A stretch of 64,000 bases of DNA, from contig JAFATB010000014.1 in assembly GCA_019244185.1 (NCBI GenBank), positions 63,587-127,586 of the forward strand, read 5' to 3'. Each line of letters starts with the position of its first letter. Position 1 is the first letter of the stretch. The notes beneath the pieces were generated by a model. The model saw only the letters and a list, made by a program, of their open reading frames with translations. It searched no databases and was not told the DNA's origin. This DNA comes from Acidobacteriota bacterium (GTDB lineage Bacteria; Acidobacteriota; Thermoanaerobaculia; Gp7-AA8). A program made the position numbers and the translations under genes. This document shows positions 22,225 to 51,889 of this stretch, one piece after another.

Positions 22225-22283
22225 GCCCGCTTTCGACACGCCGCGCAACCGCTTGTGGCGCGCGCCACCTTTCGCGCGGAAGC

Positions 22284-28013: not shown

Positions 28014-29578
28014 AACTCGCGATCGCGCAGATGGAACGGCGAGTGTCCGCGCTGGATCGCGGGCGCCCAGACGACGGCGAGCTTCTCGCGCGGTCCCGCG
28101 AAGCGATGCGCGCCGCTCGCGAGCGTACGCGCGCCGGTGAACGGCGTGCCGTCGAGCGTGCCGCGCACTTCGCCGCGCTCGCTGACGATCGTGTACTCGC
28201 CCGGCACCGCGATGGTGAACGTGCCGTCGTCGCGCAGCCATTGTCCCGACGCGCGCAGGCGTCCCATGTCGAGAAAGTTCGCGCTGAGGAACGCGCGTCC
28301 CTGCGGCGGCCACATCGGGCCGTCCGCCTGCGCGACGTGCGTGCGCGTGCGAATCACATCCGCCGCGAGCGTGTCGGGGATCAGGCCGTGCGCCATCTGC
28401 GCGCGGGTGATGTTCTCGAGGACGTAGTAGAACGGGCGACGCCGATAGATCGTCTCGCCCTTGAGGTCGAGCAGCAGCTCGCCGGGATGCGTGAGCCGCA
28501 GCGCCTGCGCCATCATGGTCGTGTGCCAGCGCGTGTCGTTGCGGAACTGATTCGCGTAGTGCACGAGCGCGAGCAGCAGCACGACGACGGCGATCGCGAA
28601 CGCCTGCAGCGGATTGCGCGCGCGCACGAGCATCGCCGCGACGAAGATCGCCGCGAGCGGCATGAGCGAGAGCAGGTCGCGCGGCGAGATCAGCACCCAG
28701 AAGCCGCCCAGCGTGATGACGTACACGCCGATGGCGACGGCGAAGAAGAAGCGCGCGGAGTCGTGCGTCTTCGGACGCAGCCGCATCGCCGCGTAAACCA
28801 GCGCCGCCATCGCGAACGGCCACGCCACGCGGCCGATCCAGACGCTGCGCCGCGTCAGCACGATGTTCTCGTTGAACGTGAAGACGCACCACACCAGGCG
28901 ATCCCACGCGCCGAGCGCCACGAAGAGCACGACCAGGATCGCCGGCACGAGGACGAGGCCGCCCAGCAACGGCAGCAGCGGCGAGAGCGCATCGCCCCGC
29001 TTCTCGATCCAGCGCACGATCGCCGCGGCACCCGCGAGCGTCGCGAGGAGCAGCGTCGTCTTCAGCGAGACCGACATCGCGCATCCGAGGAGCAGGCCGG
29101 CGAGGAACGTCCAGCGCGGCGTCCACGGCTTCAGCGCGAGCACGACCAGTGCCGCCATCCAGAACGCGTTCCACAGATTGTCGGTGCGGTACTCGAGCGA
29201 CTTGAGAAAGAACGGCGGAAAGAGCGAGAGCAGCACCGCCGCCCACGCCGCCACGCGCGCGTCGTAGAGCCGCCGCGCGAGCGCATACGTCGCCCACACC
29301 ACGAAGGCGAAGAGCGCGAGCATCGGCACGCGCATCCAGAGCAGGATGTTTGCGCGCTCGCCGAACAGCGCGAGGATCGGCGCGGTCAGCAGATGAAAGA
29401 GCGGCGCGTGGTTGTCGAAGTAGTCGCGATACTGCACGAGCCCCTGCGTCCATCCCCACGCCACGTGCAGGTGCTGCTGCTCGTCGGAGTCGAAGCGGTA
29501 GCGGAAGAGCGCGACGAGGCGCAGCACGACCGAAGCCGCGCCCGCCGCCGCGAGCAGGATGCGTTCCGCTTTGCTCAA
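28010..29578 (-). CDS. GT-C fold membrane glycosyltransferase (ArnT/PMT-like), putative
   Basis: More than 10 predicted TM helices. Acidic loop motif RFDSDEQ after the first TM. Start placed at a TTG (29578), because the ORF-track N-terminus (to 29737) runs across the tRNA-Arg gene and is therefore not real. Confidence 0.45.
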   Translation of the reverse strand: MSKAERILLAAAGAASVVLRLVALFRYRFDSDEQQHLHVAWGWTQGLVQYRDYFDNHAPLFHLLTAPILALFGERANILLWMRVPMLALFAFVVWATYALARRLYDARVAAWAAVLLSLFPPFFLKSLEYRTDNLWNAFWMAALVVLALKPWTPRWTFLAGLLLGCAMSVSLKTTLLLATLAGAAAIVRWIEKRGDALSPLLPLLGGLVLVPAILVVLFVALGAWDRLVWCVFTFNENIVLTRRSVWIGRVAWPFAMAALVYAAMRLRPKTHDSARFFFAVAIGVYVITLGGFWVLISPRDLLSLMPLAAIFVAAMLVRARNPLQAFAIAVVVLLLALVHYANQFRNDTRWHTTMMAQALRLTHPGELLLDLKGETIYRRRPFYYVLENITRAQMAHGLIPDTLAADVIRTRTHVAQADGPMWPPQGRAFLSANFLDMGRLRASGQWLRDDGTFTIAVPGEYTIVSERGEVRGTLDGTPFTGARTLASGAHRFAGPREKLAVVWAPAIQRGHSPFHLRDREF

Positions 29579-29601
29579 GATGAAGAAGCCGCCGTTTTCG
29601 A

Positions 29602-29677
29602 TGGCGCGCCCTGAGGGATTCGAACCCCCAACCAGCGGTTCCGAAGACCGCTGCTCTATCCGTTGAGCTAAGGGCGC
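29602..29677 (-). tRNA. tRNA-Arg (anticodon UCG)
   Basis: Cloverleaf folded by hand: acceptor GCGCCCT/AGGGCGC, D-stem GCTC/GAGC, anticodon stem GCGGT/ACCGC with loop CTTCGGA, T-arm GGGGG-TTCGAAT-CCCTC, discriminator G and an encoded CCA. 76 nt. Confidence 0.85.
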
Positions 29678-29758
29678 GCAGGCGCCGCGCCATCGTACTC
29701 GACACGCCGCCGCTCCGTGAATAGAATGCGCGCCCACGCTGTTCCGGTGGTTCCTTAC

Positions 29759-29834
29759 GCCGATGTAGCTCAGTTGGTAGAGCAGCTGATTCGTAATCAG
29801 CAGGTCACCGGTTCGAGTCCGGTCATCGGCTCCA
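29759..29834 (+). tRNA. tRNA-Thr (anticodon CGU)
   Basis: GCCGATGTAGCTCAGTTGGTAGAGC 5' half. Anticodon stem GCTGA/TCAGC with loop TTCGTAA. T-arm ACCGG-TTCGAGT-CCGGT. Acceptor GCCGATG/CATCGGC plus T-CCA. 76 nt. Confidence 0.85.
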
Positions 29835-29848
29835 TCTGCATCAACGAC

Positions 29849-30373
29849 TTAGCGCCGGCCGTGAGGCCGGCGTTCTCGTTTTCCCACAAGATTTCCCACA
29901 AAAGTCAGCAGTTCGTCGACGGCAGCATCGACGCCGGCGCACTCTTTCGCCGCGCCACCGATGCATCGTTCCGGCGCGATCGCGTACGCCGCCGCGGCCT
30001 CAGTCGGCGTTTGCGTAAGCGGCAGGTCCTGCTTGTTCACGAGGTACACGATCGGACGCCGATCCGCCGCCGCGTTGAAGAGCGTGAGCGCCGCGAGATT
30101 GTGCGCGTGCCTCGCGACTTGCGCGTCGAGCACGAAGAGCACGCCGTCCGCCGCACGATAGAACTCGACTGCCGCCGCGGCCGCGGCATCTGTGGCCGCG
30201 GCATCCAGGGTTTCGAAGTACCGGTTGCCGGGCAGCACCCGCGCGAGCTGCACGCGATGAACGCCGCGCTGGATCGACACGAAGTCGCTCGCCGTCGCGG
30301 AGGACGTCCGCGCGAGGCATTTCATGACTTCCGACCGCCCCGACATCGGCGGGCCGGCGACGGCGATTCGCAT
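29849..30373 (-). CDS. Ras-like small GTPase (MglA/Roc/Arf-like family)
   Basis: MRIAVAGPPMSGRSEVMK (P-loop G1-like) and LVNKQD (G4 NKxD). About 175 aa. Divergent from the large operon at 30451. Confidence 0.6.
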   Translation of the reverse strand: MRIAVAGPPMSGRSEVMKCLARTSSATASDFVSIQRGVHRVQLARVLPGNRYFETLDAAATDAAAAAAVEFYRAADGVLFVLDAQVARHAHNLAALTLFNAAADRRPIVYLVNKQDLPLTQTPTEAAAAYAIAPERCIGGAAKECAGVDAAVDELLTFVGNLVGKRERRPHGRR

Positions 30374-30450
30374 CCAACCAAGATAAGCCGCGCGTCCGTC
30401 ACGCCACAAAAAAATCCGCGCCGTGTCTCTGCACTTCCGAAGGGGAACGC

Positions 30451-31044
30451 ATGCGGAGATGGATCGGCGGTTGGATCGCTGCGGTGCTGTTGTTGTTCGC
30501 GTTCGGTGTGCCGTGGCTGCGCGCGCAGTCGAACGCGGCGCGCGTGACGACGACGCAAACGGAAGAAACCGTCGACGCGACGGGGACGGACGGGGTGCAA
30601 ACCACGTCGACGACCACCACCACGACGTCCGTCATCGAAGGCGGCATTCCGTCGACCTCCGCCGCGCCGCCGCCCGCGTGGACGCACCTCGTGCGCATCG
30701 CCGCGAACGCCGGACCGATCGCGTTCCTGCTGCTGGCGTGGCTCATCGGCGGAATCATCCACGTGCGCATGGTCCGCCGCGAGCAGGCGCAGTTCCCGGT
30801 GCTGCGCGGCAGCCGCGCGCCGCAGACGGTGCCGATGATCGTCAGCGCGCTCCTGTTCCTCGTCCCGGCCATCCTCTTCATCGTCTTCGAGGTGCGCTCG
30901 CGCTACGAGATCCGCCGCGGCCTCGCCGGCGTCGTCGACGAATGGCAGCCGGTCACGGTGCACGCGTGGACGGCGCTCGTGATCTGTCTCGCGCTCGCGT
31001 TGATCCCGTGGCTGCTCGCGCGCCGCGCGGACACGGTCGCATAG
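30451..31044 (+). CDS. membrane protein with signal peptide, Thr-rich linker and 3 TM helices
   Basis: MRRWIGGWIAAVLLLFAFGVPWLRAQS, then TTSTTTTTTS, then three hydrophobic helices. 13 bp upstream of the giant gene. Confidence 0.5.
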   Translation: MRRWIGGWIAAVLLLFAFGVPWLRAQSNAARVTTTQTEETVDATGTDGVQTTSTTTTTTSVIEGGIPSTSAAPPPAWTHLVRIAANAGPIAFLLLAWLIGGIIHVRMVRREQAQFPVLRGSRAPQTVPMIVSALLFLVPAILFIVFEVRSRYEIRRGLAGVVDEWQPVTVHAWTALVICLALALIPWLLARRADTVA

Positions 31045-31057
31045 GAAGGACGGAATC

Positions 31058-34000
31058 GTGGCGAACTACCTCATTGCGGTCGGCGGCACCGGCCAGCACG
31101 TCGCACTCGCGGTGGCCGATTTCATCGCGCTCGCGTACGAGATCTACACCGAAGAATTTCCGAACGTTCAGATGATTCTCGTCGACGCCGATCAGGCGGC
31201 GGACACGGATCAGCCATCAGCGTGGCAGGAGGCGCGCGCGCGGCTCAACGCGCTCGGTCTGCTCGCCGGCGACAGCTTCGAATGCGTCCCGCTTCCGGTG
31301 CACTCGCAGCTCGCCGACTCGCGGCGCATGTACGAGTTCGTGAATCGCCTCGGCGCGTCGTTCGGTCCGAACGCGGCGGACGCGCTGCTGCTGCGCGAAC
31401 AGCGCGAGGTCGACGTGACGACCGGCTTCTACGCGCAGCCACGCGTCGGCGCGATGATGGCCGAATGGCTCTTCAATGAAGTGACGCGCGGCGACGGCGT
31501 GAACCCGCAGCTCGCGCGCATCTTCGCGCTCGCCGGCGATCCGGCGAATCGCATCGTCGTCGCGGGGTCGGGCGTCGGCGGCACCGGCGCGGGCTTCGCG
31601 CCCGCGCTCGTGCGGCGGCTCTCGGCGGCAAGCGGTGGTGGCCGGCTGATGGCGCTCATGGCCACGGAATGGTTCCGCCTCTCGGGCCTGTGCGCGAACC
31701 GCCTTTCGGAATCGGTGCAGAAGAGCAACGCGAACTCCGCGCTGTGGCACGCGGCGCATTCGGGCTCGAGCGCCGTGCGCACGATTCTGTTCGGACATCC
31801 GTCCGTCTCGCGCGCGCCGGAGGAGGAATGCCAGAGCGGCGCGTTCCAGGCGCGCAAGCGCAACCTCACCATTCCGTACTATGCGGCCGCGGCGGCGCTG
31901 TCGTTCTTCGCCGGCGATGCGAATGGCGGCACGCACGTGCCCGCGGCGACGCTCGCGGGCGACGTCGTTGCGCTGCCGAAGTCGCTGCGGATCACGCCGC
32001 GTCTGACGTTGCGCGAGCTCGTCGAGTCGAACGTCGAAGCGGTCGGGCGACTGACGCTCGCATCGGAGTATCTGCGCGGTCGCTATCAGGGATTCGTGCT
32101 GCCGTTCTCGTCGCTGAGCGGCCGGATCGCGGCGCTCGATCAGACCGACCGCCAGCGCATCGACGGTCCGCTCGCCGCGAAGCGCGCGGCCTTGCGCAAC
32201 CTCGGCGTCTCCGACGAGAAGCTGCCCGTCGTGCCGCGCATTCATCGCGGTCTCGCGACGCTGCGCGGCTGGGTCAACGGCAGAGTCGATCGTCCGTACG
32301 ATCTCTGGAAGGACGTTCCGGTCGTGCCGCCGCAGACGACCGAGCGCAAGGCTGAAGCCGTCGCGGCCGACAGCGACACCGCGGCGCTGCTCATCCGCAA
32401 GATCGGTTATGCCAGCCGCGTGACCGGCGGCAACGTCGTTCCGATCACGCAGGCGCAGGTGCGCGAGCTCGTGACCGTCGACGACGTCGACGTATCGAAA
32501 GTGCCGGCGTCGGACGCGGTGGAGCTCACGCTCGGCGACATCTTTCGCAATTGGGAAGCGCGCAACGGCGAGGAGAAGGCCGAGCTCGCGGCGCTGCTCG
32601 TCGAGGACGGGCGCGTGCGGCGTCCAGTGCTCGTCTCCGGTGACAAGGGCGACCGTCCGCGCGAATGGCTGAAGCGCTGGCTGCTGCTCGCGAACCTGCT
32701 CGTCGAGAACAAGCTGACGGTCGAACCGAAATCGCTGCCGTTCACGACGGGAAAGATTCTCTCGTTTCGCGGCATCCCGATCGGCGAGCTCTCGCGCGAG
32801 TTCGTCTGCCTGCCGCTCGTCAACGGCTACTGGAACGACGAGGCGACGATCGGCGCGCTGTGGAATGCGGCGTCGCGGCTCGAGTCGCTCGCGACGTGGT
32901 GCCGCAACACGGCCGCGGTCGCGCGCTGCCGAACGGCCGCACTGCCGGCGTGGCTCGACGTGCTGCTCTTCGCGACCTCGCGCTACGCCGGCGTGACCAA
33001 GCAGTTCACGTCGCAGAGCGTGACTGTGCGCTGGCCCGGCATCGCGGAGCCGGTCTCGCTGCCGCTGCCGAATGCCGCCGCCGGCAGTGCCGACGCGAAA
33101 GACTGCGTAGCCGCGGCGGCGGAGGCGTTCGGCGTGCTCACGCCGCAGCCGTCGCCCGCGGAGATGTCGCCGGCCGTGCGCGCGGTGGTGCAGGAGATCG
33201 CGCGCATCGCGCTCCCGGTTCCGCGGCTCGGCGGCGGCGAAACGAAGAGCATCGTCTTCTCGGAGTTGCTGCCGCCGGCGGCGCGCGACTGCCTCTTCGG
33301 CGAGATCGTCGTCGACACCGACGCGCGATGCGCGTGGCGGCTCGAAGCGACCGCGCGCATCGTCACGTCCGTCGCCGGCGAGTTGCTGACGGAGAACGTC
33401 GGCTGCTTCCGCAACGAGCAGCGGACGGAGTGGCTGACGCCGCTGCGGCGCGAGTACGTCCCGCTGCTCAAGTCGGGCGTCGTTGACGTGCGCAGCGAGG
33501 AGCACGGCCAGGAGCTGCGCGTCAGCGTGAGAGTCCACGACCGCACATTCGTCGAGTCGTACGCGGCGTCGCGCGTGCGTGCGATCAATCCGCTGCTGTT
33601 GCATTGGCCGGCGGCCGTCGCCAGTCCGTCGGCGAGCCTCACGGTGCTTTTCGACGTGCCGGAGCATCGCTACAGCCCGCAGACGGTGTACGCCGTGATG
33701 CACGACGCGCAGGCGAAGGCGTGGACGCTCTCCGCGCCGCTGAGCGAGCGGCACTCGCTGCACTACCTCGCCACCGACGGCAACGTGCCGCACAGCCTCT
33801 CGTTCGACCTCGAGCGTCACGACGTCGGCTTCGTGAAGATCGAGCGCGCGGTGCAGCACCTCGAAGACGCCACGCAGCGCGTCGCCGTCGACTTCGGCAC
33901 ATCGGCAACCGTCGTCGCGATCGACGGCGCGCAGAAAACGGAAGTGCTCGATCTCCTCGCCGCCGGCGCCGATGCGACCGCCGAGGTGTGGAAGGGGAGC

Positions 34001-35344
34001 GCGCTGGAAGCGTTCCAGTGGTACGGGACGCGTCCGGTGGATTCGACGATCCGCGAGAAGCGTCGCGCGCCGAGCGCGCTGGTCTATCTCGGATCGGCGA
34101 AAGATGCGCGTCCGCCGCGGCCGCAGTACGGCGATCACGTCCTGCTCGATCAGGACGACTGGCAGTGGAAGAGCGACGGCACGTCGCTGCTCTTCGACAT
34201 CAAGTGGACGCGCGAGCGCGCGTATCGCGAGGCGTTTCTCGTCCACCACCTCGAGCAGTGCATCGCCGCCGCACTCAGCAAAGGCATCGTGCACAGCCGC
34301 CGGCTCTCCGTCATCTTCACGATGCCGCTGCGGCAGCGCGCCCGCGCGGCGGATTTCGTCGCGGAGATCGAAGGCGTCATCGCGACCTTGCACCGCCGCA
34401 CCGGACTGCAGCTCGAGTCGCGGTTCGCGTACGAGTCGGAAGTCATCGCGCCGATCGAAGCGCCGGCGACCGATGTCGACGCGATCGTGATCGCGGACCT
34501 CGGCGGCGGAACGCTCGATTTGTTCGCGAAGCACTTCGGCCGCGGACGCAGGGGCGGCGCGCGCAACGTCGTCTTTGAGAGCGCGCGCATCGGCGGTCAC
34601 TCGCTCGTCGAATGGCTGACGCGCGACTTCGGCGGCACCGAGCTCGCGGAGTATCGCCGCAAGCTGCGCATCGGCTCCTTGCCGCAGCTCGACGAAGCGT
34701 CGTCGCGCATCGCCGCGAGTTACTTCGACGTCGTGAAGCGCTTCACCGCGCTCTGGATGGATTCGGTCTGGCGCTACTGGACCGGCGGCGACCAGCCAGG
34801 CCGCGTGCACGTGCAACTCCTCGGCATGGGCTGGTCGCTGCCGGCGTCGCCGGACGAGCAGATGGCGCTGCATCTCACCGACATCGCGCGCGCCCTCGGC
34901 TCGCAACTCGCGTACAGCCGCTACGAGGATCCGACGCTGCCCGGCAATCCGAAGGAGCTGCTGGCGCGCCGCACGATCCTGCACGGCGGCGCGACGCGCG
35001 GCGACTTCGTCGCGTTCGAACCGGCGGCGGTGAACGGCATCGAAGTCAGCGTCGCGGGCGAAGTCCGCCGCGACGACGAGCCGCTGCGCGGGCTCGGCGC
35101 GAACACGCCCGCCGTCGGCATCACCGCGAACGGACTGCAGCGCATCGCGAAGCTGACCGGCGCGCGCGAGGAGATCGTCGCCGCCGTGCGCGACGGCACG
35201 CGCATCGCGCTCACCACGCGCTCGACCGGCGTCGACAAACACGACGGCGCCGTGCTCGAAGGCGTGAACGTCTGGGTCGCCAGCCCGCTGGCCATCGCCG
35301 CGGAAACGTACACGCGCCAGGTGCTGCTGCAGGTGCACGCATGA
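31058..35344 (+). CDS. Giant (1428 aa) protein with N-terminal tubulin/FtsZ-like GTPase signature and C-terminal Hsp70/actin-like ATPase signature
   Basis: N-terminus IAVGGTGQHVALAV (T1-loop-like GGxGxx). VVAGSGVGGTGAGFAPALV matches the FtsZ/tubulin T4 signature GxGGGTGxGxAP. C-terminal region: AVDFGTSATVVAIDG (phosphate-1-like DxGT[ST]) and IVIADLGGGTLDLFA (Hsp70 phosphate-2 DLGGGTFD-like). These are motif-level assignments only. Confidence 0.6.
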   Translation: MANYLIAVGGTGQHVALAVADFIALAYEIYTEEFPNVQMILVDADQAADTDQPSAWQEARARLNALGLLAGDSFECVPLPVHSQLADSRRMYEFVNRLGASFGPNAADALLLREQREVDVTTGFYAQPRVGAMMAEWLFNEVTRGDGVNPQLARIFALAGDPANRIVVAGSGVGGTGAGFAPALVRRLSAASGGGRLMALMATEWFRLSGLCANRLSESVQKSNANSALWHAAHSGSSAVRTILFGHPSVSRAPEEECQSGAFQARKRNLTIPYYAAAAALSFFAGDANGGTHVPAATLAGDVVALPKSLRITPRLTLRELVESNVEAVGRLTLASEYLRGRYQGFVLPFSSLSGRIAALDQTDRQRIDGPLAAKRAALRNLGVSDEKLPVVPRIHRGLATLRGWVNGRVDRPYDLWKDVPVVPPQTTERKAEAVAADSDTAALLIRKIGYASRVTGGNVVPITQAQVRELVTVDDVDVSKVPASDAVELTLGDIFRNWEARNGEEKAELAALLVEDGRVRRPVLVSGDKGDRPREWLKRWLLLANLLVENKLTVEPKSLPFTTGKILSFRGIPIGELSREFVCLPLVNGYWNDEATIGALWNAASRLESLATWCRNTAAVARCRTAALPAWLDVLLFATSRYAGVTKQFTSQSVTVRWPGIAEPVSLPLPNAAAGSADAKDCVAAAAEAFGVLTPQPSPAEMSPAVRAVVQEIARIALPVPRLGGGETKSIVFSELLPPAARDCLFGEIVVDTDARCAWRLEATARIVTSVAGELLTENVGCFRNEQRTEWLTPLRREYVPLLKSGVVDVRSEEHGQELRVSVRVHDRTFVESYAASRVRAINPLLLHWPAAVASPSASLTVLFDVPEHRYSPQTVYAVMHDAQAKAWTLSAPLSERHSLHYLATDGNVPHSLSFDLERHDVGFVKIERAVQHLEDATQRVAVDFGTSATVVAIDGAQKTEVLDLLAAGADATAEVWKGSALEAFQWYGTRPVDSTIREKRRAPSALVYLGSAKDARPPRPQYGDHVLLDQDDWQWKSDGTSLLFDIKWTRERAYREAFLVHHLEQCIAAALSKGIVHSRRLSVIFTMPLRQRARAADFVAEIEGVIATLHRRTGLQLESRFAYESEVIAPIEAPATDVDAIVIADLGGGTLDLFAKHFGRGRRGGARNVVFESARIGGHSLVEWLTRDFGGTELAEYRRKLRIGSLPQLDEASSRIAASYFDVVKRFTALWMDSVWRYWTGGDQPGRVHVQLLGMGWSLPASPDEQMALHLTDIARALGSQLAYSRYEDPTLPGNPKELLARRTILHGGATRGDFVAFEPAAVNGIEVSVAGEVRRDDEPLRGLGANTPAVGITANGLQRIAKLTGAREEIVAAVRDGTRIALTTRSTGVDKHDGAVLEGVNVWVASPLAIAAETYTRQVLLQVHA

Positions 35345-36045
35345 ACCAGATGCCGGTGATCCTCGCGCTCGCGGTTCTCGCGCTGACGATCGTGCTCACC
35401 GCGCTCGCGCTGACGATGCGCCTGCGCGCGCTCGAGAAAAGCGTCCACGCGGCGCAGGACCGCGGCCGCGCGTCGAAGGACAAAGACACGCGGCGCGAAG
35501 AGCTGGCGCAGCTGAAGAGCGAGCTGCAGAAGAGCATCGAGTCGCTGCGCTCGACGATCGTGAATGTGCCGGTGGAAGTGGTGCGTCGGCTGCCGCGGCA
35601 AAACTTCGATGCAGCTCCGCCGCGCGCGATGAATCCGCCGCCGGCATCGCGCAGCGTGTTCCGCGATGAGCGCCAAGCCGAGCATTACGCTGAGTCAGTC
35701 TCCGCGGAAGACGGAGCCGCGCAGCTGCTTGCGCTCGCGAACCGCATCGTGCAGCAGAACTCCACCACGCTCGACGCCGTGCGCGCGAGCACCGACGCTC
35801 TCGCCGCGCACGTCACCGTCTGGCCGCCGTCGGGGGAAGGCACTCCGATCGCGTTCATCGTCGAGCATCGCGGCACGTGGTACGCGGTCCCGAACGTCGT
35901 CAAGCCGGCGCGGCTGCCGAACGACTGGTTCAACCGCGCCGACTTCGGCGTGAACGACGAGATCCGCCGCGTCGAATCGCTGCCGCGCCTCACGCGCCGC
36001 GGCGACGACTTCGAAGTGCAGCACGCCGGAGTGTTCTCGCGATGA
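35341..36045 (+). CDS. single-pass membrane protein with coiled-coil segment and C-terminal globular domain
   Basis: ATGA overlap with the giant gene. N-terminal TM MNQMPVILALAVLALTIVLTALALT, then heptad-like ELAQLKSELQKSIESLRS. Confidence 0.5.
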   Translation: MNQMPVILALAVLALTIVLTALALTMRLRALEKSVHAAQDRGRASKDKDTRREELAQLKSELQKSIESLRSTIVNVPVEVVRRLPRQNFDAAPPRAMNPPPASRSVFRDERQAEHYAESVSAEDGAAQLLALANRIVQQNSTTLDAVRASTDALAAHVTVWPPSGEGTPIAFIVEHRGTWYAVPNVVKPARLPNDWFNRADFGVNDEIRRVESLPRLTRRGDDFEVQHAGVFSR

Positions 36046-37427
36046 CGGTGCTCTCGCTGCAGGCTCCTCGGCCTCCGGCGCGGCGGCTCTTCTGGGAGCC
36101 GTGGCTCGCCGTCGTCGTCGCGGCGGCGCTGTACCTGCGCGTCGCGGCCGGCCAGTGGGGCGGGCTCGCCGCGCTCGCATGCGAGCTCGCGCTCGCGGTG
36201 ATCCTGCGCGCGCAGCTGTTGCGGCGCGCGGACGAAGAGGCGGAGCTGACGGAGCGCCTCGCATCGCGCGACCTCTCGATCACCGACGTCGATCGCCTGA
36301 TCGGCAGCACCGCGGAGCGTGTGCAGGGGATGTTCGCCACCGCGTCGAGCGCCGTGCTGGCCACGGGGATGGCGGCGTCCGCGTTTCTGCTGCTGTTCTA
36401 CGCGAGCGCCGGAACGACCGGCGGCGGCATCGTGTCGGTCGCGCCGAAGGCGTTCGTCGCGACCGGCTACGCGATCCTCTGCGCGCTGGCGCTGACGCGC
36501 GACGCGCATCACCTGAACGCGACGATCTTCGAGCCGCTGCGGCGGAAGAAACTCGACGACGCGAATCGCGAGCCGACGCCGGCGACGCGATCCGCGGTCG
36601 CGCCGGAGTCGCGGACGTCGCGCGTCGAGGAGCTCATCGAACAGCTCGTCTCGATGCAGATCAGCCAGCTGCAGGCGCTCCACGAAGCGAATCAGCAGCT
36701 CGCCGCCGCCGCGTCGGAACGCGTCGACGAAGAGTCGGGCGCGGTGCGCGTGAAGCTCGCGAAGGGACTCACCGATTTCCGCAAATCGGTCGAGCAGCTG
36801 AACGAGATCGTGCAGTCGCTCAACGCGCGTTTCGACGCACTCACGCACGAGGACGCGGCGCTCTTCGAGCAGCACCGGCGCGAGCTCGTGAGCGAGATCG
36901 TGCGGTTACCGCAGCAGGTCATCGACCGCACCGCGGGACTCATCGCCACGTCGGTGACGCGGGTCGAGGAGCAGTTCCGCGCGACGCTGCAGACGATTCA
37001 CGACGACGAGATCCGCCGCGCGCGCGATCTGCTGGCCGGCGAATTCCGCACGCTGCGCGATCAATTCGAGCTCACGGAGCATTCCGTCTCCGCGATCAGC
37101 ACGCGCTTCAACGACGTCGTCTCCTCGCTCGACGCGCTCGCCTCCGCGTTCGACCGCGGCGCGAAGTCGGTTGTCGGCAGCGCCGCGGAGTTCACGCGCG
37201 AGGCGGAGTCGCTCGTCGCGTCCGTCACCACGGCGTTGGGCCGGCTGGGCGACGCGGACGAGACGAACGCGTCGCTGCTCACGCCGCTCACCGAAGCCGC
37301 GACCGCGGTGCGCAAAGCGTCGTCGCTCGTCGCCACCGACATGCGCAAGGTCGCCGCGGAACGCGAGCGCCTCGGCCGCGTGCGGCTGAAGCTCCTCGAG
37401 CTGCTGCCGAACGGGCAGGAGAACTGA
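36042..37427 (+). CDS. MotA/TolQ/ExbB-like membrane protein with long C-terminal coiled-coil tail (ZorA-like architecture)
   Basis: N-terminal 4 TM helices. The last two (LATGMAASAFLLLF and GIVSVAPKAFVATGYAILCALALT) resemble the TolQ LGTVxGIxxAF and GIAPxIAEALxATAxGL helices. About 300 aa of heptad-rich sequence follow. ATGA overlap with the upstream gene. Confidence 0.5.
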   Translation: MTVLSLQAPRPPARRLFWEPWLAVVVAAALYLRVAAGQWGGLAALACELALAVILRAQLLRRADEEAELTERLASRDLSITDVDRLIGSTAERVQGMFATASSAVLATGMAASAFLLLFYASAGTTGGGIVSVAPKAFVATGYAILCALALTRDAHHLNATIFEPLRRKKLDDANREPTPATRSAVAPESRTSRVEELIEQLVSMQISQLQALHEANQQLAAAASERVDEESGAVRVKLAKGLTDFRKSVEQLNEIVQSLNARFDALTHEDAALFEQHRRELVSEIVRLPQQVIDRTAGLIATSVTRVEEQFRATLQTIHDDEIRRARDLLAGEFRTLRDQFELTEHSVSAISTRFNDVVSSLDALASAFDRGAKSVVGSAAEFTREAESLVASVTTALGRLGDADETNASLLTPLTEAATAVRKASSLVATDMRKVAAERERLGRVRLKLLELLPNGQEN

Positions 37428-37429
37428 CG

Positions 37430-38155
37430 ATGTTCGGGCGCGGCGTCAACTACTGGATCTCGTGGGCCGACCTCACGTTCATGCTCTTCATCGGCGGACT
37501 CGCGGCCGTCGCGTTCAGCGACGAGCAGCGGACGGCGGCGCAACAGGAACTCGCGGCCGCGAAGGGTGCGCTCGCGGAAGCGCGCGGCGAGCTCGACGTC
37601 CTCCGCAGCCACAGCAATCCGTGCGCGGATGCGAGTCCGTTCCTGGCCGGCTTCTCGAGCTGCGTCGCGCGGGCGACCGGCCGCAGACAGGTGCCGGGCA
37701 GCGGCTGCTTCGTGACCGTCGGCGAAGACGTGATCCGCTTCGAGAAGGGGAAGGCCGTGCCGCTCGACGCGTCGTCCGCCGACGCCGTGGCCGGCTGCCT
37801 CTACACGAACGCGCTGCGGTTCGCGGCGGCGGATCCGCGCTCCTTCAACGCGATCACGATTCACGTCGACGGACATACCGACTGCGTCGGCACGCGCGCG
37901 GGAAACGAGAAGCTCGGCGCGGACCGCGCGTTCAGCGTGTACGCGCGCCTCCTCGAACGCGCGGAGAGCGATCCGGTCTGGCTATCGCCGAAGCAGCGGC
38001 GCGCGTTCCTCGGACGCATCGCCGTGCGCTCGTTCGGCGACACGCGTCCCGTCGAAGGCTCACGGTGCATCGCGCCGTTCGGCTGGGAAGGCGATCGCCG
38101 CGTCGTCGTCTCCGTGCAGCTCGCGACCGAAGGCGCCGCGGGGAGGCGCGGGTGA
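37430..38155 (+). CDS. MotB/OmpA-family protein (stator MotB/ZorB-like)
   Basis: YWISWADLTFMLFIGGLAAVAF matches the MotB plug/TM region with the conserved proton-accepting Asp (ADL). C-terminal OmpA-like peptidoglycan-binding motif ITIHVDGHTDCVGTRAGNEKLGADRAFSVYARL. Confidence 0.75.
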   Translation: MFGRGVNYWISWADLTFMLFIGGLAAVAFSDEQRTAAQQELAAAKGALAEARGELDVLRSHSNPCADASPFLAGFSSCVARATGRRQVPGSGCFVTVGEDVIRFEKGKAVPLDASSADAVAGCLYTNALRFAAADPRSFNAITIHVDGHTDCVGTRAGNEKLGADRAFSVYARLLERAESDPVWLSPKQRRAFLGRIAVRSFGDTRPVEGSRCIAPFGWEGDRRVVVSVQLATEGAAGRRG

Positions 38156-38331
38156 TCTCGACGATCGTGATGGTCGCCGTCGTCGTGCTGCTCGCGTTCA
38201 CGCTCGCCGCGGCGCGGCGTTCGTGGCAGCGGCAGCTCGAACTGGAACGCGCAAACGAGACGATGCAGCGCGAGCTACAGCGCCACCGCGACACCGTGCA
38301 TTCGATTCTTCGGGAGTTGCAGAATCCATGA
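38152..38331 (+). CDS. small single-TM protein (59 aa), unannotated
   Basis: GTGA overlap with the motB-like stop. VISTIVMVAVVVLLAFTLAAA TM plus a charged helical tail. ATGA overlap with the next gene. Confidence 0.45.
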   Translation: MISTIVMVAVVVLLAFTLAAARRSWQRQLELERANETMQRELQRHRDTVHSILRELQNP

Positions 38332-39545
38332 GAAAGCCTGCGTTGCTGCTCGCGGTCTGGTTCGTCGTGACGGCGTGCGGTGGAGGTGAAGAACGCGCCG
38401 TCACCGTCGAATGCCGGCCGTCCGTGAGCGTCGTCATTCCGGCCGCGGGCAACGCGCGACGCAAGGCGGAGGCGGCGCAGGCGCGCGAAGTCGTGCAGGT
38501 GTACTGGGACGTCTCACGATCGATGCGCGATTTCGCGGTCGCGCGCAAGCATGGCGGCGGCGCGGAAGCGACCGACGATCTCACGCCGGTAGTCGAAGCG
38601 CTCGACAGCGGTGTCTTGCTTTCCGCGCATGCGGAGGCGGTCGAACAGTACGGCGTCGGCGAATCGATCGCGCGGCTGGCCACCGCGCGCGCGGCGCTGC
38701 ATCCCACCGCGAACCGCACCGCGCTGCATCTCGCCGCGGAGCAACTCGGCGACGCGCTCGCAACCGGCCGCGCGCAAGCCGCGATCGTCGTCTCCGACAT
38801 GGAGCTCGATACGCCGCCGCGCGCGTCGACCGACGCCACGGTCTGCGGCGGCGTGCCGCTGCCGAGCACGCCGCTGGCGGGCTCGCTGTTCGGCCGCTGC
38901 TTCGAGAACGCGGTGCTCGCCGTCGACGCGCCGAGCGCCATGCGCGCGCGCCTGCTCGCGCACGTCTTCCGCAAGGCCTCGCACGGACGCGAGCTGTTCA
39001 TCCTCCTGCTGGCGACGGACCACGCGTTCGGCCAGCACATCTCCGAACAGATCGTGAGCCGTCTCGACTTCGAGCGGCAGGTCATCTTCGATGCGAACGC
39101 GGTGGCGGCGTCGAACGTCCGCGGCTGCCGCTTCACGATCCCCGAGTCGCGCGTGCGTCCGCGCGATCTGCCGCGGTGCGGCGCGAAGTGCTTCGATCGC
39201 GACGCATCCATCGAAACCGAATGCGATCTGCGCCGTCCGGCGAACGATGCTTGGATCGAGCCCGCGGGACGCGGCTCGACCGGCACCTCGTACGAGTCGC
39301 TGCAGAAACGGGCAGGCGACCGCGAGGAGCCGGCGCGCATGCGATTCACGATTCCGTGCAGTACGCCGCCTGGGCGATTCGACGCGTCCGTCTCGTTCAC
39401 ATGGCGCCGGCGTTTAGCGCGCAACGCAGCCGAGCCGTTCGCGCAAAAGGAAAGTGTGCGCGATCTCTTCGACAGTCTCTCCGACGCGATCGTGCGCGTC
39501 GTCGCGCCGCGCACGCTGCGCGTCAGCGTGAATCTCCACCAATGA
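38328..39545 (+). CDS. vWA-domain lipoprotein
   Basis: Lipobox LAVWFVVTAC. MIDAS DxSxS motif (YWDVSRSM) shortly after the signal. 4-nt coupling with both neighbours. Confidence 0.6.
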   Translation: MRKPALLLAVWFVVTACGGGEERAVTVECRPSVSVVIPAAGNARRKAEAAQAREVVQVYWDVSRSMRDFAVARKHGGGAEATDDLTPVVEALDSGVLLSAHAEAVEQYGVGESIARLATARAALHPTANRTALHLAAEQLGDALATGRAQAAIVVSDMELDTPPRASTDATVCGGVPLPSTPLAGSLFGRCFENAVLAVDAPSAMRARLLAHVFRKASHGRELFILLLATDHAFGQHISEQIVSRLDFERQVIFDANAVAASNVRGCRFTIPESRVRPRDLPRCGAKCFDRDASIETECDLRRPANDAWIEPAGRGSTGTSYESLQKRAGDREEPARMRFTIPCSTPPGRFDASVSFTWRRRLARNAAEPFAQKESVRDLFDSLSDAIVRVVAPRTLRVSVNLHQ

Positions 39546-39658
39546 ATGACGCTCCCACGCCGGCGACCGACGGCCTGCTCAGCTGCGCGATCGCCGCGGG
39601 CGTGCTCTGTCTGACGCTCGTCGTGCTCGCCGTGATCGCGCTCAGCGCGGCGTCGTGA
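39542..39658 (+). CDS. small hydrophobic peptide (38 aa), unannotated
   Basis: ATGA overlap with the vWA stop. MNDAPTPATDGLLSCAIAAGVLCLTLVVLAVIALSAAS is a single TM helix. Confidence 0.4.
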   Translation: MNDAPTPATDGLLSCAIAAGVLCLTLVVLAVIALSAAS

Positions 39659-39724
39659 ACGCCCCAAGGTAGGGACTCGCCCGCTTCCCGACTCTCCATG
39701 GTTGTGGAACGTAAAGGAGACGTG

Positions 39725-41266
39725 ATGAGTCGACGTGTAATCCGAGGTTTGGCCGCGCTCGTTTTCCTCGTTGGGGCTCTTTCCTGCAAGCAAGAGACGC
39801 CGTCGCCGGCGGTCGACAAGGCGCCGCCGCCCGCGCCGAAGCCGGCGGTGGTGACGACGGTGAATCTGCCGCCGAACTCGTGGCAGGTGCCGGTCGACGT
39901 CAGTCCCACCCCGCCGCCCAATCCGCCGCAGAACAACTACCTCAACCTCGGCTGGCAGACCTTCGTCGCGCTCAACTGGCCGGCGCTCTCGCCGTCGTCA
40001 GGCGGACAGAACGCGCAGCCGGACACGAACTCCGTCATCGGCGCGGTGGCACCGAACGGCGCGATCGTGCCGACGGTGTGGAACACGTACCGCGATCTCA
40101 GCACGATCATGCTCGATCAGGGCGCCGATCCGGGATCGACGTACACGCAGCAGGTTTCGATCCCGTCCGCGTGCGCGGCGATCACGCCGGCCAATCCGGT
40201 CGCGCCGGGCTTCCAGCCGATGTACATCGACGGCTCGACGTTCCAGACCGCGACGATCGTGCGCGACTACATCAATCAGGCCACCGGCAATCCGCTCGTC
40301 GATCAGAAGGGGTGGTACACGATCACGGACATCCGCGTCGATCCTTCCGAGTACGCGTACATCCAGCAGAACGGCTACTACCTCGGCGCGAATCAGGTCG
40401 CGGCGTACAACAAGTCGGGCCAGTTGCAGCCGTTCCCGAAGAACGGCACCGAGATCACGCCGCCGCTGCCGTCGTACGCGCAGTACGGCGCGCTCGAGGT
40501 GAAGGCGACGTGGCGCGTGCTGAATCCCTCGACCGACTCCGCGATCATCCCGCGCTACTACACGCAGTGGGGTTACTTCATGCAGCCGGACGGCAAGACC
40601 TGCCAGGGACCGGCGCTGTTCGGCCTCATCGGCATGCATATCCTTCGACTCACACCGTCGATGGGCGGCACGTGGTTCTGGGCGAGCTTCCAGCAGGTCG
40701 ACAACGTCGCCGCACCGAACGGCATCGCGCCGACGCTCGCGAAGCTGGGCACGCCGAACGGCAACTGCGGCGGCAACTACAACAAGAAGCCGCCGCAGGT
40801 CACCGGCAACATTCCGTGGAACGGCAACAACACGCCGGACGACATCTGCCAGGTCAAGAACATCCCGAGCGAAGTGCAGCAGGTCAATCAGACGTGGCAG
40901 AAGAATCTGAGCGGCACGGTCTGGCAGTACTACGAGATGGTGCACACGCTCAACCCTTGCCCGTCGGGCGCGAAGGAATGCTACGTCTTCCCGCCGATCA
41001 AGGATCAGAACAACAAGATCGATCTGAAGATCTTCGGCAACAACGCCATCGAGACGTACTTCCAGACCAGCAACTGCATGACCTGTCACGGCTCGGCGTC
41101 GGGCAACGGCGCGCCGTCGCCGCTGACCGGCACGAACCAGATCTTCACGTTCGTCCTGCTCAACGCGTACATGCCGCAGACGACGCAGACGAACGCGAAG
41201 CGCAGCGAGATCAAGCGGCTGCTCGAGGTGCTGCCGCAGAGCGACGCCGTCGCCATGCATCCGTAG
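39725..41266 (+). CDS. secreted lipoprotein, Pro-rich linker, N/Q/T-rich body, single C-terminal CxxCH motif (possible c-type haem site)
   Basis: RBS AAGGAGA. Lipobox LVGALSC. PAVDKAPPPAPKPAVV linker. NCMTCHG near the C-terminus. Codon and amino-acid composition shifts to lower GC relative to its neighbours. Confidence 0.5.
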   Translation: MSRRVIRGLAALVFLVGALSCKQETPSPAVDKAPPPAPKPAVVTTVNLPPNSWQVPVDVSPTPPPNPPQNNYLNLGWQTFVALNWPALSPSSGGQNAQPDTNSVIGAVAPNGAIVPTVWNTYRDLSTIMLDQGADPGSTYTQQVSIPSACAAITPANPVAPGFQPMYIDGSTFQTATIVRDYINQATGNPLVDQKGWYTITDIRVDPSEYAYIQQNGYYLGANQVAAYNKSGQLQPFPKNGTEITPPLPSYAQYGALEVKATWRVLNPSTDSAIIPRYYTQWGYFMQPDGKTCQGPALFGLIGMHILRLTPSMGGTWFWASFQQVDNVAAPNGIAPTLAKLGTPNGNCGGNYNKKPPQVTGNIPWNGNNTPDDICQVKNIPSEVQQVNQTWQKNLSGTVWQYYEMVHTLNPCPSGAKECYVFPPIKDQNNKIDLKIFGNNAIETYFQTSNCMTCHGSASGNGAPSPLTGTNQIFTFVLLNAYMPQTTQTNAKRSEIKRLLEVLPQSDAVAMHP

Positions 41267-41365
41267 ATCGTTTCAACACGAACGCGGCGTCCGGGCGCAA
41301 GGCTCGGGCGCCGCGTCACAGGAACGCTACAAACGCTTCGCCGCGCGTGCGCCTATCGTGAGCGG

Positions 41366-42421
41366 ATGCGCAAATTCGTCGTCTGTGCTCTGGTGATGTT
41401 CGCGGCCGCCGTTGCGTCCGCGGCCGATCTGCAACTCACGAAAGAGACGCTGGCGGACGGCGTGTATCTCTTCCGCGCGCCGTCGGATCTCGATCTGTGG
41501 ACGGCGACGAACGTCGTGGCCGTCGTCGGCGACCGCGACGTGACGGTGTTCGACACGTGCACGCGCCCGGTCACCGCGCGCATGGTCATCGCGGAGATTC
41601 GCAAGATCACGGACAAGCCGGTGCGCACGATCATCAACTCGCACTGGCACATGGACCACTGGATGGGCAACGCGGAGTTCGCGAAGGCGTATCCTGGCGT
41701 CGAGATCATCGCCACGGAAGAGACGCGCGCGTACATGCAGCGCATGGGCAACGCGTTCTTCTCCGGCTCGATCGCGAAGGGTGTGGCGCGGCGGCGCGCC
41801 GACCTCGCGAACGCGACGAGCGACGCGCAGCGCAAGCAGCTCGAAGACGAGATCGCGTTGTACGACGCGTTCGCGAAGGAGAGCGCCGAGGTGCCGCACG
41901 TGCTGCCGACGCTGACGTATCGGGAGGAGCTCACGTTCTGGCGCGGCAAGCGCGAGTTCCGGCTGATGAGCGTCGTGGGCGACGCGACGGGATCGACGGC
42001 GCTGTTTCTGCCCGCGGAGAAAATCCTCGTCACCGGCGACGCGCTCGTGCATCCCGAGAGCGGCGACGGACCGCCGCCGTGGACGACGAACTCGTACGCG
42101 ATCACGCCGTGGCTGGCCACGCTGCGGAAGTTCCAGGCGCTCGACGCGCGCGTGATCGTCCCGGGTCAGGGGCCGGCGTTTCACGACGAGGCGTATCTCG
42201 ATCTGACCGCGGAGCTCTACCAGTCGATCCTCGATCAGGTGCACGGCGCGATGGAGCGCGGGCTGACGACGCTGGCGGACATTCAGGCGGCGGTGAACGT
42301 CGATGCGATCGGCCTGCGCTACACGCCGGGAGCGACGGCCCCCGATCCCGACTTCAAGCGTCTCGTCGGCGTGCTGACGAAGAAGGCGGCGCAGGAGGCG
42401 TTCGACGGCGTGGAGCGCTGA
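41366..42421 (+). CDS. secreted MBL-fold metallo-hydrolase
   Basis: Signal peptide plus INSHWHMDHWMGN (HxHxDH). Confidence 0.75.
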   Translation: MRKFVVCALVMFAAAVASAADLQLTKETLADGVYLFRAPSDLDLWTATNVVAVVGDRDVTVFDTCTRPVTARMVIAEIRKITDKPVRTIINSHWHMDHWMGNAEFAKAYPGVEIIATEETRAYMQRMGNAFFSGSIAKGVARRRADLANATSDAQRKQLEDEIALYDAFAKESAEVPHVLPTLTYREELTFWRGKREFRLMSVVGDATGSTALFLPAEKILVTGDALVHPESGDGPPPWTTNSYAITPWLATLRKFQALDARVIVPGQGPAFHDEAYLDLTAELYQSILDQVHGAMERGLTTLADIQAAVNVDAIGLRYTPGATAPDPDFKRLVGVLTKKAAQEAFDGVER

Positions 42422-45084: not shown

Positions 45085-45090
45085 GCGCCG

Positions 45091-47298: not shown

Positions 47299-47735
47299 TT
47301 GACGAGCCTCTCTGCTTCGTCCTGGGTCACGTCGCCGTACGTCCAGATGCATTTGGAGACGTCTTTGTAGGCGACGCCGCGGAATTCGTGCAGGCGCAGG
47401 AAGCGCTTCACGCCGCCGCCGTACGCGTCGTATTCGCCGGCGCCGTAGTGCATCGCTTCGATCATCGAGCCGTCGAGGATGATCCCGGTCTCGAGGAGCA
47501 GCACGCGGCAGTCGCGGCCGGCGGCGTTCGCGCGGATGTGCCACGCGTGGAAGCGCGACGCGTCGTACAGCTGGGCAAGCGACCGGGCCGCCGCGACGTG
47601 CTGGCCGGCGTTCGCGGCCGAGCGCTTCGCGGTGCATTGCGCGCCGCCGAGGATCAGGAGTGCGCCGAGGAGGAATGTGCGCGCCAAGGGTTGATCCTTT
47701 CGAAAAGGTGCGCCGCCCGTTGCCGGGCGGCGCAC
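47289..47735 (-). CDS. small secreted hypothetical protein
   Basis: Hydrophobic N-terminal segment LARTFLLGALLILGGAQC. Sits in an operon between caspase-family genes. Confidence 0.4.
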   Translation of the reverse strand: MRRPATGGAPFRKDQPLARTFLLGALLILGGAQCTAKRSAANAGQHVAAARSLAQLYDASRFHAWHIRANAAGRDCRVLLLETGIILDGSMIEAMHYGAGEYDAYGGGVKRFLRLHEFRGVAYKDVSKCIWTYGDVTQDEAERLVKCR

Positions 47736-47748
47736 CGCGGAAACGAAA

Positions 47749-48825: not shown

Positions 48826-48844
48826 GGTTGTTCTCCTTTTTCGT

Positions 48845-51859: not shown

Positions 51860-51889
51860 ATACGCGTTTCGCGGAATCGAGAGCAGGCG

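Follow-up and report, generated by a model that had tools for sequence, protein, structure and literature searches.

Ion-driven 5:2 motors power flagella, Ton/Tol transport, gliding and Zorya immunity. In Zorya, ZorA and ZorB form a peptidoglycan-anchored, proton-driven motor of this type, in which the long cytoplasmic tail of ZorA passes on the signal of an envelope perturbation and soluble effectors are recruited (PMC11946911). A second kind of described operon is built around the FtsZ-like 1 (FtsZl1) family of Makarova and Koonin, whose Pfam model is Tubulin_2 (PMC2875224; PMC9871819); these operons contain vWA and OmpA-family partners, often with a kinase or P-loop GTPase, and were predicted to be membrane-remodelling systems (Makarova & Koonin 2010, PMC2875224). 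Tubulin, HSP70 and vWA components have also been predicted in the DO-GTPase/GAP1-N2 conflict systems (Kaur et al. 2020, PMC7159879). Here we describe an operon of eight genes (w1 to w8, 30451-39658, + strand) in a 64,000-nucleotide stretch of contig JAFATB010000014.1 (the window, meaning the whole stretch that was analysed) from an Acidobacteriota bacterium of the class Thermoanaerobaculia. The operon, or cassette, joins a giant protein with a putative tubulin/FtsZ-like GTPase domain at one end and a predicted Hsp70-like ATPase at the other to a stator pair resembling ZorA and ZorB. We infer that it most likely serves as a new machine either for defence triggered at the envelope or for remodelling of the envelope.

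Gene structure and conservation of the cassette

Because the window has approximately 69% G+C, raw lists of its open reading frames (ORFs) are full of spurious frames, and genes were accepted by the G+C pattern over the codon positions together with direct translation. The pattern taken for real genes was approximately 0.7, 0.5 and 0.88 at the first, second and third positions (GC1, GC2 and GC3), and the genes of the operon have GC3 values of 0.82-0.92 on the + strand. The same operon genes were recovered by a codon-usage gene caller trained on the giant gene, and the w1-w8 set is also present in an independent public gene call for the same genome, including the two micro-proteins of 59 and 38 residues.

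The operon begins with w1 (30451-31044, 197 aa), which encodes a membrane protein, and with the giant gene w2 (31058-35344, 1428 aa), which has a GTG start behind a AGGAAGGA ribosome-binding site. An ATGA overlap joins the giant gene to w3 (35341-36045, 234 aa), which is followed by w4 (36042-37427, 461 aa) for the ZorA/MotA-like stator A subunit and w5 (37430-38155, 241 aa) for the ZorB/MotB-like stator B subunit. A GTGA overlap leads from w5 into w6 (m59; 38152-38331, 59 aa), with one transmembrane (TM) helix and a charged helix, and then come w7 (38328-39545, 405 aa), for a predicted lipoprotein, and w8 (m38; 39542-39658, 38 aa), for a single-TM micro-protein, which overlaps w7 by ATGA and is the last gene of the unit. 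The junctions from w1 to w8 measure +13, -4, -4, +2, -4, -4 and -4 nt, five of them being 4-nt ATGA/GTGA overlaps. The coupling of these eight genes is therefore as tight as the sequence-only reading of this DNA had stated, and they make up a self-contained, translationally coupled operon.

That reading had counted a ninth gene into the unit, w9 for a CxxCH lipoprotein (from 39698 or, more likely, 39725 to 41266, + strand, 505-522 aa), and this part of the claim did not hold. The gap between w8 and w9 is 39-66 nt, the GC1 of w9 is 0.56 compared with approximately 0.70 in the operon genes, its overall G+C is also below that of its neighbours, and in none of the other genomes compared was it found beside the cassette. 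For these reasons the unit is 30451-39658 and not 30451-41266, and w9 was ruled out as a component of the system. The protein has one CxxCH near its C-terminus and matches Pfam Cytochrome_CBB3 at an E value of only 0.026; it may be a separate, possibly acquired gene. A pattern scan of 29500-41600 yielded no candidate promoters or terminators beyond what shuffled sequence would give.

A pattern scan of one genome per GTDB species, which left out the most distant group of giants (DMGGGTTD type, 1750-1970 aa), returned 55 cassette loci. The hosts belong to the Thermoanaerobaculia, Vicinamibacterales, Bryobacterales, Rhodothermales and other Bacteroidota, Longimicrobiales/Gemmatimonadota, Latescibacterota and Oligoflexales. 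Gene calling and clustering gave a common gene order of t - giant - c - V - A - B, and ten loci have the order of the window, t - giant - c - A - B - m59 - V - m38. The parts of the two orders correspond one to one by hhalign, with controls between mismatched families at or below 2.8%. Parts were counted in the 35 independent loci with at least 6 kb of downstream DNA: V is present in 33 of them, A in 31, B in 27, c in 22 and t in 21, and these are undercounts, since frameshifts in metagenome-assembled genomes (MAGs) and the coverage filter lose genes. Median junctions in the same loci are -4 nt for giant to c and for V to A, +3 nt for A to B and +12 nt for t to giant. The flanking genes are unrelated between genomes. 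Such an arrangement is far beyond chance, and the t, giant, c, V, A and B genes are inherited as one block in several phyla. The sequence-only reading had taken a failure of the gene set to recur in other genomes as grounds against it, and the set does recur in many.

Some loci depart from the usual picture. Two carriers lie far from the main hosts, an Enterobacterales MAG (L010, CAZRFD010000034.1) and a Methanosarcinales MAG (L036, CAYHWL010000117.1), and may owe the cassette to horizontal transfer or to contamination during binning; L009 and L010 have their V gene on the opposite strand. A Rhodothermales chromosome (L021, OZ241874.1, 94-20420) carries a tandem array, giant-V-A-B-giant-giant-V, with three giant genes, and a second cassette (L037) is located elsewhere on the same chromosome, which looks like a paralogous expansion of the system. 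In four Rhodothermales loci (L019, L037, L048 and L056) an extra conserved protein of approximately 250-290 aa (cluster k19) follows the ZorA-like gene.

The giant protein, the stator pair and their partners

The giant protein, predicted to be cytoplasmic, consists of a tubulin/FtsZ-like GTPase domain (31058-31870, aa 1 to approximately 270), a middle of approximately 630 aa without a recognised fold, and an Hsp70-like (ASKHA/actin-fold) nucleotide-binding module (33755-35344, aa 900-1428). Searches with the single sequence returned nothing in PADLOC or NCBIfam, and in Pfam they gave Tubulin_2 at E 9e-4 (19 bits, below the 27-bit cutoff) over residues 6-56 only, with no coiled-coil or other family reported. 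A word-indexed protein search found 33 close relatives in Thermoanaerobaculia and two proteins with approximately 30% identity that aligned at both ends, and repeating it with an alignment added no further members. The family seemed tiny before an exhaustive HMMER search, in which a profile of residues 1-1175 was compared with 1.84 billion cluster representatives (50% identity clusters), giving 456 representatives at E<=1e-3 and 86 at E<=1e-30. These relatives are mostly 1450-1970 residues long and co-linear with the query across its whole length, and standalone tubulin-like (approximately 450-500 aa) and Hsp70-like (approximately 600 aa) proteins are also among the matches. The giant of the window and the giants of the widespread cassettes (type B) match each other by hhalign with 100% probability (E 1.7e-67).

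At the N-terminus of the giant there is a T1-like loop, GGTGQH (aa 9-14), and a T4 signature, GSGVGGTGAG (aa 170-179). Both are kept, as GG[TS]G and GSxxGGTG[AS], in all members of an alignment of 37 divergent giants. Among 36 members of the family, Pfam reported Tubulin_2 (PF13809) in 15, with a best E value of 3.5e-10, and Tubulin (PF00091) in 10, with a best E value of 8.5e-6. In a PDB search with an N-terminal family profile, CetZ, FtsZ and gamma-tubulin made up 55 of the 58 matches; the best E value was 0.016, and the aligned region is the T4 loop with the strand after it. Motifs and family profiles thus identify the N-terminus as a putative FtsZ-like GTPase domain of the Tubulin_2 type. 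In the same Pfam scan of 36 giant and tubulin-like relatives, extra domains were seen: TerD in two proteins, a protein kinase in one and a type I restriction HSDR_N-like domain in one.

For the C-terminus, an AlphaFold2 model of residues 900-1428 was built on an alignment of 45 sequences, with a predicted local distance difference test score (pLDDT) of 85.3 and a predicted template modelling score of 0.87. Foldseek against the PDB placed Hsp70 nucleotide-binding domains (Ssz1, Ssb, DnaK, BiP) first, at E 1.6e-9 and probability 1.00, and ParM was among the 268 matches at E<=1e-3. The fold is assigned from the predicted structure, since the sequence profile of the whole giant reached DnaK only at E 0.35 and ParM at E approximately 1. 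The expected nucleotide-binding motifs are present as VDFGTS (phosphate-1, aa 944-949), DLGGGTLD (phosphate-2, aa 1147-1154) and LLGMGWSL (adenosine, approximately aa 1254-1261; LxGNG[WF]-type in the family), and HMMER aligns the two phosphate motifs with those of DnaK. Phosphate-1, as D[FL]G[TS]S, is found in all aligned giants, and phosphate-2, as D[LMI]GGG[TS]xD, in 28 of 35 by the strict pattern. Residues D945, G947, K1049, E1126, D1147, G1149-1151, D1154 and G1256 are invariant in 37 giants, T1152 is also listed as invariant, and D945, K1049, E1126, D1147, T1152 and D1154 occur in the order expected of the Hsp70 catalytic set, in which K1049 and E1126 would be the equivalents of the catalytic Lys and Glu. 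Pfam HSP70, MreB and Actin match neither the window giant nor its 36 relatives, so the giant is not a member of the Hsp70 family and is Hsp70-like in fold only. The model accordingly predicts an Hsp70-type nucleotide-binding domain, by fold, in the C-terminal 530 residues. The tubulin-like/actin-like fusion proposed from the letters of the window was borne out by the family, and its actin-fold part is specifically of the Hsp70 type. In residues of approximately 300-900 no family was detected.

The A subunit, w4, has an N-terminal domain of four TM helices (approximately aa 20-155) and a helical tail of approximately 300 aa. In its AlphaFold2 model the TM part has a pLDDT of 72-88, and helices cover residues 194-226, 232-286, 291-401 and 409-454. 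The tail thus agrees with the sequence-only description, but the MotA-like call failed in single-sequence searches: the top Foldseek matches of the model were rich in ExbB, MotA, TolQ and PomA, every one of them at E>=0.1; Pfam gave no MotA_ExbB match in 39 members of the A family, only coiled-coil and apolipoprotein-type matches; and the PADLOC ZorA1 match of w4 is confined to the tail (model positions 337-593, E 1.5e-4), with ZorA1 matching the isolated TM domains of the A family at E<=0.01 in 2 of 26. The call was upheld by family profiles. A TM-domain profile of the widespread type-B relatives had as its first PDB match ZorA chain 8vvi_F (E 0.0044), from the structure in a Zorya paper (PMC11890865), followed by other ZorA chains and MotA chains. 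The A* family of the window and the A family align over 177 columns (hhalign 96.8%, E 2.8e-10), and the merged TM-domain profile matched MotA at 7.3e-5 and 8e-5, ZorA 8vvi_F at 3.4e-4, ZorA 8qyh_A at 1.1e-3, further ZorA chains at 4.6e-3 and 7.8e-3, and then PomA. These alignments span the pre-TM helix and the TM hairpin, pairing G-I-G-G-T-M with G-M-V-G-T-L and A-L-x-A-S-x-x-G-V with A-L-I-T-T-F-Y-G. By these profiles w4 is a remote member of the MotA/ZorA superfamily; its tail would be cytoplasmic according to the positive-inside rule, and presumably pentameric. A protein of an 'Acidobacteria bacterium' MAG (locus tag JO197_01175) is 100% identical to w4, and the closest relatives of w4 are all from Thermoanaerobaculia.

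The B subunit, w5, opens with a pore helix (WISWADLTFML), which a coiled linker connects to an OmpA-like peptidoglycan-binding domain (GHTD...N..LG..RA). Residues R4, W9 and D14 are invariant in 25 sequences, most relatives reading WPAFADLMT. A profile of 69 N-terminal positions matched ZorB chain 8qyd_F first in the PDB (E 8.4e-5), with two further ZorB-type chains next, and w5 itself matches Pfam OmpA with 30.3 bits (cutoff 27.2) and PADLOC ZorB1 at 6e-7. These results agree with the sequence-only description of w5, which had noted its likeness to MotB, the Asp in its TM segment and its OmpA anchor, and point to a ZorB/MotB-like pore helix, with an invariant Asp that probably carries protons, joined to an OmpA-type peptidoglycan anchor. 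In loci L014-L059 (for example L018, 19497-20147) the WPAFADLMT helix is kept and a C-terminal domain with conserved cysteines (PCLG...C.F) stands in place of OmpA. This form occurs in Vicinamibacterales, Rhodothermales, Longimicrobiales and others, the OmpA form being limited to the window type and to the type of L001, L012 and L039. A canonical flagellar or Tol/Exb stator was considered for the pair and rejected, given the long tail of A, best matches that include ZorA and ZorB, and the absence of flagellar or Ton/Tol partner genes nearby.

The w1 protein, whose gene always lies directly upstream of the giant gene, has a signal-like N-terminus, a Thr-rich linker and three to four TM helices. 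It is kept in 9 window-type loci, the place before the giant gene is taken by a small TM protein in 21 of the 35 loci, and the hhalign match between w1 and the type-B t family is weak (27%, E 6.6e-4). Nothing in Pfam matched w1 above threshold. The w3 protein is anchored by a TM helix at its N-terminus; after a charged/Pro-rich linker of variable sequence comes a conserved C-terminal domain of approximately 110 aa, which is predicted to be cytoplasmic by the positive-inside rule. This domain can be aligned across both types of cassette (c* with c, hhalign 92.7%, E 4e-7), with P184, W196 and F197 invariant, and belongs to no known family in Pfam, PADLOC or NCBIfam. Of the two micro-proteins, m59 is conserved in window-type loci (cluster 12) and m38 in three of them (cluster 21). 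Between c and V in L001, L012, L039 and L057 there is a small TM and coiled-coil protein of 112-149 aa.

The w7 protein carries a lipobox (VVTA-C17), which together with its conserved cysteines places it outside the cytoplasm, and a DVSRSM motif followed 96 residues on by Asp157. In its family D61, S63 and D157 are invariant and C191, C288, C344 and W359 nearly so; the motif reads D61-x-S63-x-S65 in the window type, and the third Ser is a Pro in most relatives. The V* and V families match each other (hhalign 97.6%, E 2.7e-12). The sequence-only reading had called w7 a vWA lipoprotein, and of that call the motif and the lipobox remain: Pfam found vWA in none of 36 family members, a PDB profile search returned no vWA structure, and hhalign between the V family and a neighbour with a weak VWA_2 match gave at most 2%. 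A vWA fold is suspected from the DxSxS...D motif and the lipobox. No SHLS or pore-helix motif was seen in V.

The cassette would also have the ingredients of a surface adhesion or gliding-type force transducer similar to Agl-Glt of Myxococcus, since it unites a stator driven by ions with an ATPase of actin fold, a GTPase and a lipoprotein outside the cytoplasm that carries a MIDAS-like motif. In Agl-Glt a MotAB/TolQR-like motor with a cytoplasmic actin-like or GTPase scaffold moves a periplasmic or outer-membrane vWA adhesin. The coupling of a motor to a vWA protein, and a vWA gliding adhesin, have precedent (PMC12204202). We consider this role quite improbable here, as neither an outer-membrane beta-barrel nor a secretin nor any component for adhesin export belongs to the conserved block, the vWA fold of V is not demonstrated, the cassette has only 6-8 genes and is often present in several copies, and the long cytoplasmic tail of A is not an architecture of the Agl/Tol type.

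It is also conceivable that there is no single system, and that the genes are juxtaposed by chance or the domain calls are artefacts of high G+C and coiled-coil composition. For most of the window proteins, single-sequence matches in Pfam, NCBIfam and PADLOC are indeed below threshold or in coiled-coil regions. Synteny and 4-nt overlaps are, against this, conserved in at least 35 independent loci, the matches to MotA/ZorA, ZorB and Tubulin_2 by profile and to Hsp70 by fold are specific and significant, and the hhalign controls between non-corresponding families stayed low. Synteny and profiles together effectively refute such an explanation, to which we give hardly any weight.

Proposed function and genomic setting

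The best explanation of the cassette may be a system following the logic of Zorya, in which the tubulin-Hsp70 nucleoside triphosphatase (NTPase) would be the cytoplasmic partner in place of the ZorC/D/E/F/G effectors. By analogy, we put the probability of a conflict or defence role at about one in two. The A and B subunits would assemble in a 5:2 ratio, like a stator, and be fixed to the cell wall, with the tail of A projecting into the cytoplasm. When the envelope is disturbed, for instance as a phage attaches or injects, V, possibly with t and the micro-proteins, would signal this and the motor would be unplugged; the flow of ions would then rotate or reconfigure the tail, which together with the tethered c protein would recruit or activate the giant. 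The giant might assemble or remodel at the site in a GTP/ATP-dependent manner, the conformational change or assembly being the output, and may either block the invader or, via the small TM proteins, contribute to killing of the cell by membrane damage. More tentatively, the cassette could represent a fourth kind of Zorya-type immunity, in which a proton-driven ZorAB-like rotary motor senses a breach of the envelope, its tail switches on the tubulin-Hsp70 fusion, and GTP/ATP-driven assembly of the fusion at the membrane is the immune output, the effector being cytoskeletal and not a nuclease.

The setting of the cassette in the window is consistent with a defence role, as it lies in a defence island. 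A complete Shango system is located upstream, with SngA (22284-24497, PADLOC E 1.6e-89), SngB (24494-25837, E 3.8e-182) and SngC (25872-28013, E 1.3e-259), and upstream of Shango, within 18904-28013 on the - strand, is a Mokosh MkoA-like protein of 1222 aa with RNase H-like and SF1 helicase parts (PADLOC E 1.3e-40). Between Shango and the cassette are a PMT_2-type glycosyltransferase (28010-29578/29737, - strand) and a 165-aa ORF without an assigned function (29849-30346, - strand); a terminator-like hairpin occurs on the + strand at 29851-29874. Downstream, the - strand carries a DUF4236 protein (44020-45084), a caspase-domain protein (45091-47298/47748, E 4.4e-23) and a TPR and CHAT protein of approximately 1000 aa with a weak BovA-like match (48845-51856). 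A protein of 358-377 aa with no family lies near the caspase and CHAT genes on the same strand, and this stretch (44020-52108) may be a further conflict module.

Several observations weigh against defence. In other genomes the cassette mostly lies beside metabolic or housekeeping genes and only now and then beside IS66, caspase or AIPR genes; summarised PADLOC and Pfam output for 111 flanking proteins (24 loci) showed no coherent defence-island signal. It is therefore mainly this window that speaks for a defence island, and the association with defence genes is suggestive and not general. No relatives of the cassette were found on viral contigs or plasmids. Among the cassette proteins there is no recognisable effector, whether nuclease, protease, NADase or pore-former, and PADLOC recognises none of giant, c, V and t. 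The invariant residues in the middle of the giant are W592, P795 and P851 only, which look structural, and in many lineages the OmpA anchor of B has been swapped for the different, Cys-containing C-terminal domain. The 5:2 stoichiometry, the topology of the tail and its contact with the giant are proposals by analogy, and phage protection is putative.

The same ordinary flanks, and the lack of any toxin-like effector in Pfam, PADLOC and NCBIfam, would suit a housekeeping machine without any invader, in which the inner membrane or envelope is shaped, constricted or repaired by the peptidoglycan-anchored motor together with the tubulin-Hsp70 protein (vesicle formation, Tol-Pal-like outer-membrane homeostasis, stress repair). 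The N-terminal domain of the giant falls into the Tubulin_2/FtsZl1 group, the FtsZl1 family has been described with OmpA-family, vWA and TM partners and assigned its role by context (PMC2875224), and TolQR-type motors with vWA 'force transducers' have been proposed (PMC12204202). We regard a housekeeping role as rather unlikely. The cassette is patchily distributed across distant phyla, with unrelated flanks and with tandem or multiple copies in one genome, none of which is usual where the envelope function is a core one. Among solved structures, the nearest relatives of A and B include the defence proteins ZorA and ZorB, A has a Zorya-type long tail that Tol/Exb motors lack, the copy in this window lies in a defence island, and the assignment of V as a vWA protein is unproven.

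Whether as envelope-triggered defence or as a remodelling machine, the cassette is widespread and odd enough to merit experiments. If it serves in defence, Zorya-type sensing would be extended to a non-nucleolytic effector of polymer or chaperone type. If it is an envelope machine, the proton motive force would be newly connected with a cytoskeletal element of bacteria, in soil phyla that have been little studied. An FtsZ-like GTPase fused to an Hsp70-like ATPase would in addition be a new output of a 5:2 motor, as its cytoplasmic client. FtsZl1 was labelled a component of membrane remodelling in 2010, to our knowledge with no experiment on it since, and the ZorAB-like stator offers that family a concrete and directly testable partner.

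Comparison with known systems

In the literature searched, we found neither a study or description of a protein that fuses tubulin and Hsp70 nor one in which such a protein is paired with a ZorAB-like motor. The fusion is represented by at least 86 clusters (50% identity) at E<=1e-30. The sequence-only reading could not match the whole gene set to a described system, and this is nearly right; however, it missed a clear precedent in the FtsZl1-vWA-OmpA operons (PMC2875224).

More remote are two other groups of systems. The DO-GTPase/GAP1 systems (PMC7159879) likewise contain tubulin- and HSP70-superfamily NTPases and membrane-associated vWA proteins (putative in the cassette), with NTP-dependent assembly as the proposed output. 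In those systems, however, tubulin and HSP70 are separate genes in alternative themes, found in Firmicutes and Actinobacteria around DO-GTPases and GAP1, whereas the cassette fuses the two in one polypeptide and its partner is a ZorAB-like motor. No cassette protein matches a P-loop GTPase family in Pfam or NCBIfam, and by this GTPase criterion alone a DO-GTPase/GAP1 system was rejected. The TolQR/ExbBD-like motors with vWA 'force transducers' (PMC12204202), and Agl-Glt, resemble the cassette in coupling an ion-driven motor of 5:2 type to an extracytoplasmic protein with vWA-like features, but have neither a long tail on the A subunit nor a tubulin-Hsp70 partner.

Zorya (PMC11946911, PMC11890865) is closer. 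In both, a MotA-family A subunit with a long helical tail stands next to a MotB-family B subunit with a pore-helix Asp and a peptidoglycan-binding domain, and when the A and B profiles were compared with solved structures, ZorA and ZorB ranked among the best matches. The cassette is also compact and coupled, and the copy in this window lies in a defence island. As the sequence-only reading had noted, the known Zorya partners are missing: PADLOC matched none of ZorC-G in any cassette protein, and since ZorC with ZorD, ZorE, and ZorF with ZorG are all absent, the cassette is not a Zorya system of type I-III. Its partners are instead the tubulin-Hsp70 giant, the tethered c protein, the extracytoplasmic V protein and small TM proteins. 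Its A subunit is too diverged for Pfam MotA_ExbB and barely touches the PADLOC ZorA models, and B is without an OmpA domain in many lineages. The tail of the E. coli ZorA is approximately 500 aa long, and that of the cassette A subunit is shorter, at approximately 300-400 aa.

With the FtsZl1 operons (PMC2875224) the cassette shares a very large protein that starts with a diverged FtsZ/tubulin GTPase carrying a GGTG-type signature. The two are also alike in having an OmpA-family protein and TM proteins as partners, along with a vWA protein that is putative in the cassette, and in their patchy distribution across phyla. A typical FtsZl1 protein continues with a coiled coil and an alpha-helical C-terminal domain; the cassette giant ends in an alpha/beta Hsp70-like domain that replaces both, and is therefore not a typical FtsZl1 protein. 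The window giant is also below the gathering score of Tubulin_2, and Pfam and NCBIfam found no kinase or P-loop GTPase in the cassette. The 2010 account sees the OmpA-family partners as membrane transport or porin-type proteins, without a MotA/ZorA-like subunit (PMC2875224), whereas the OmpA-family protein of the cassette is the B subunit of a ZorAB-like stator and stands next to a ZorA-like A subunit. The cassette can be read as a combination of Zorya and FtsZl1 features, either as an FtsZl1-type operon in which a ZorAB-like B subunit is the 'OmpA', or equally as a ZorAB-like module with a new client.

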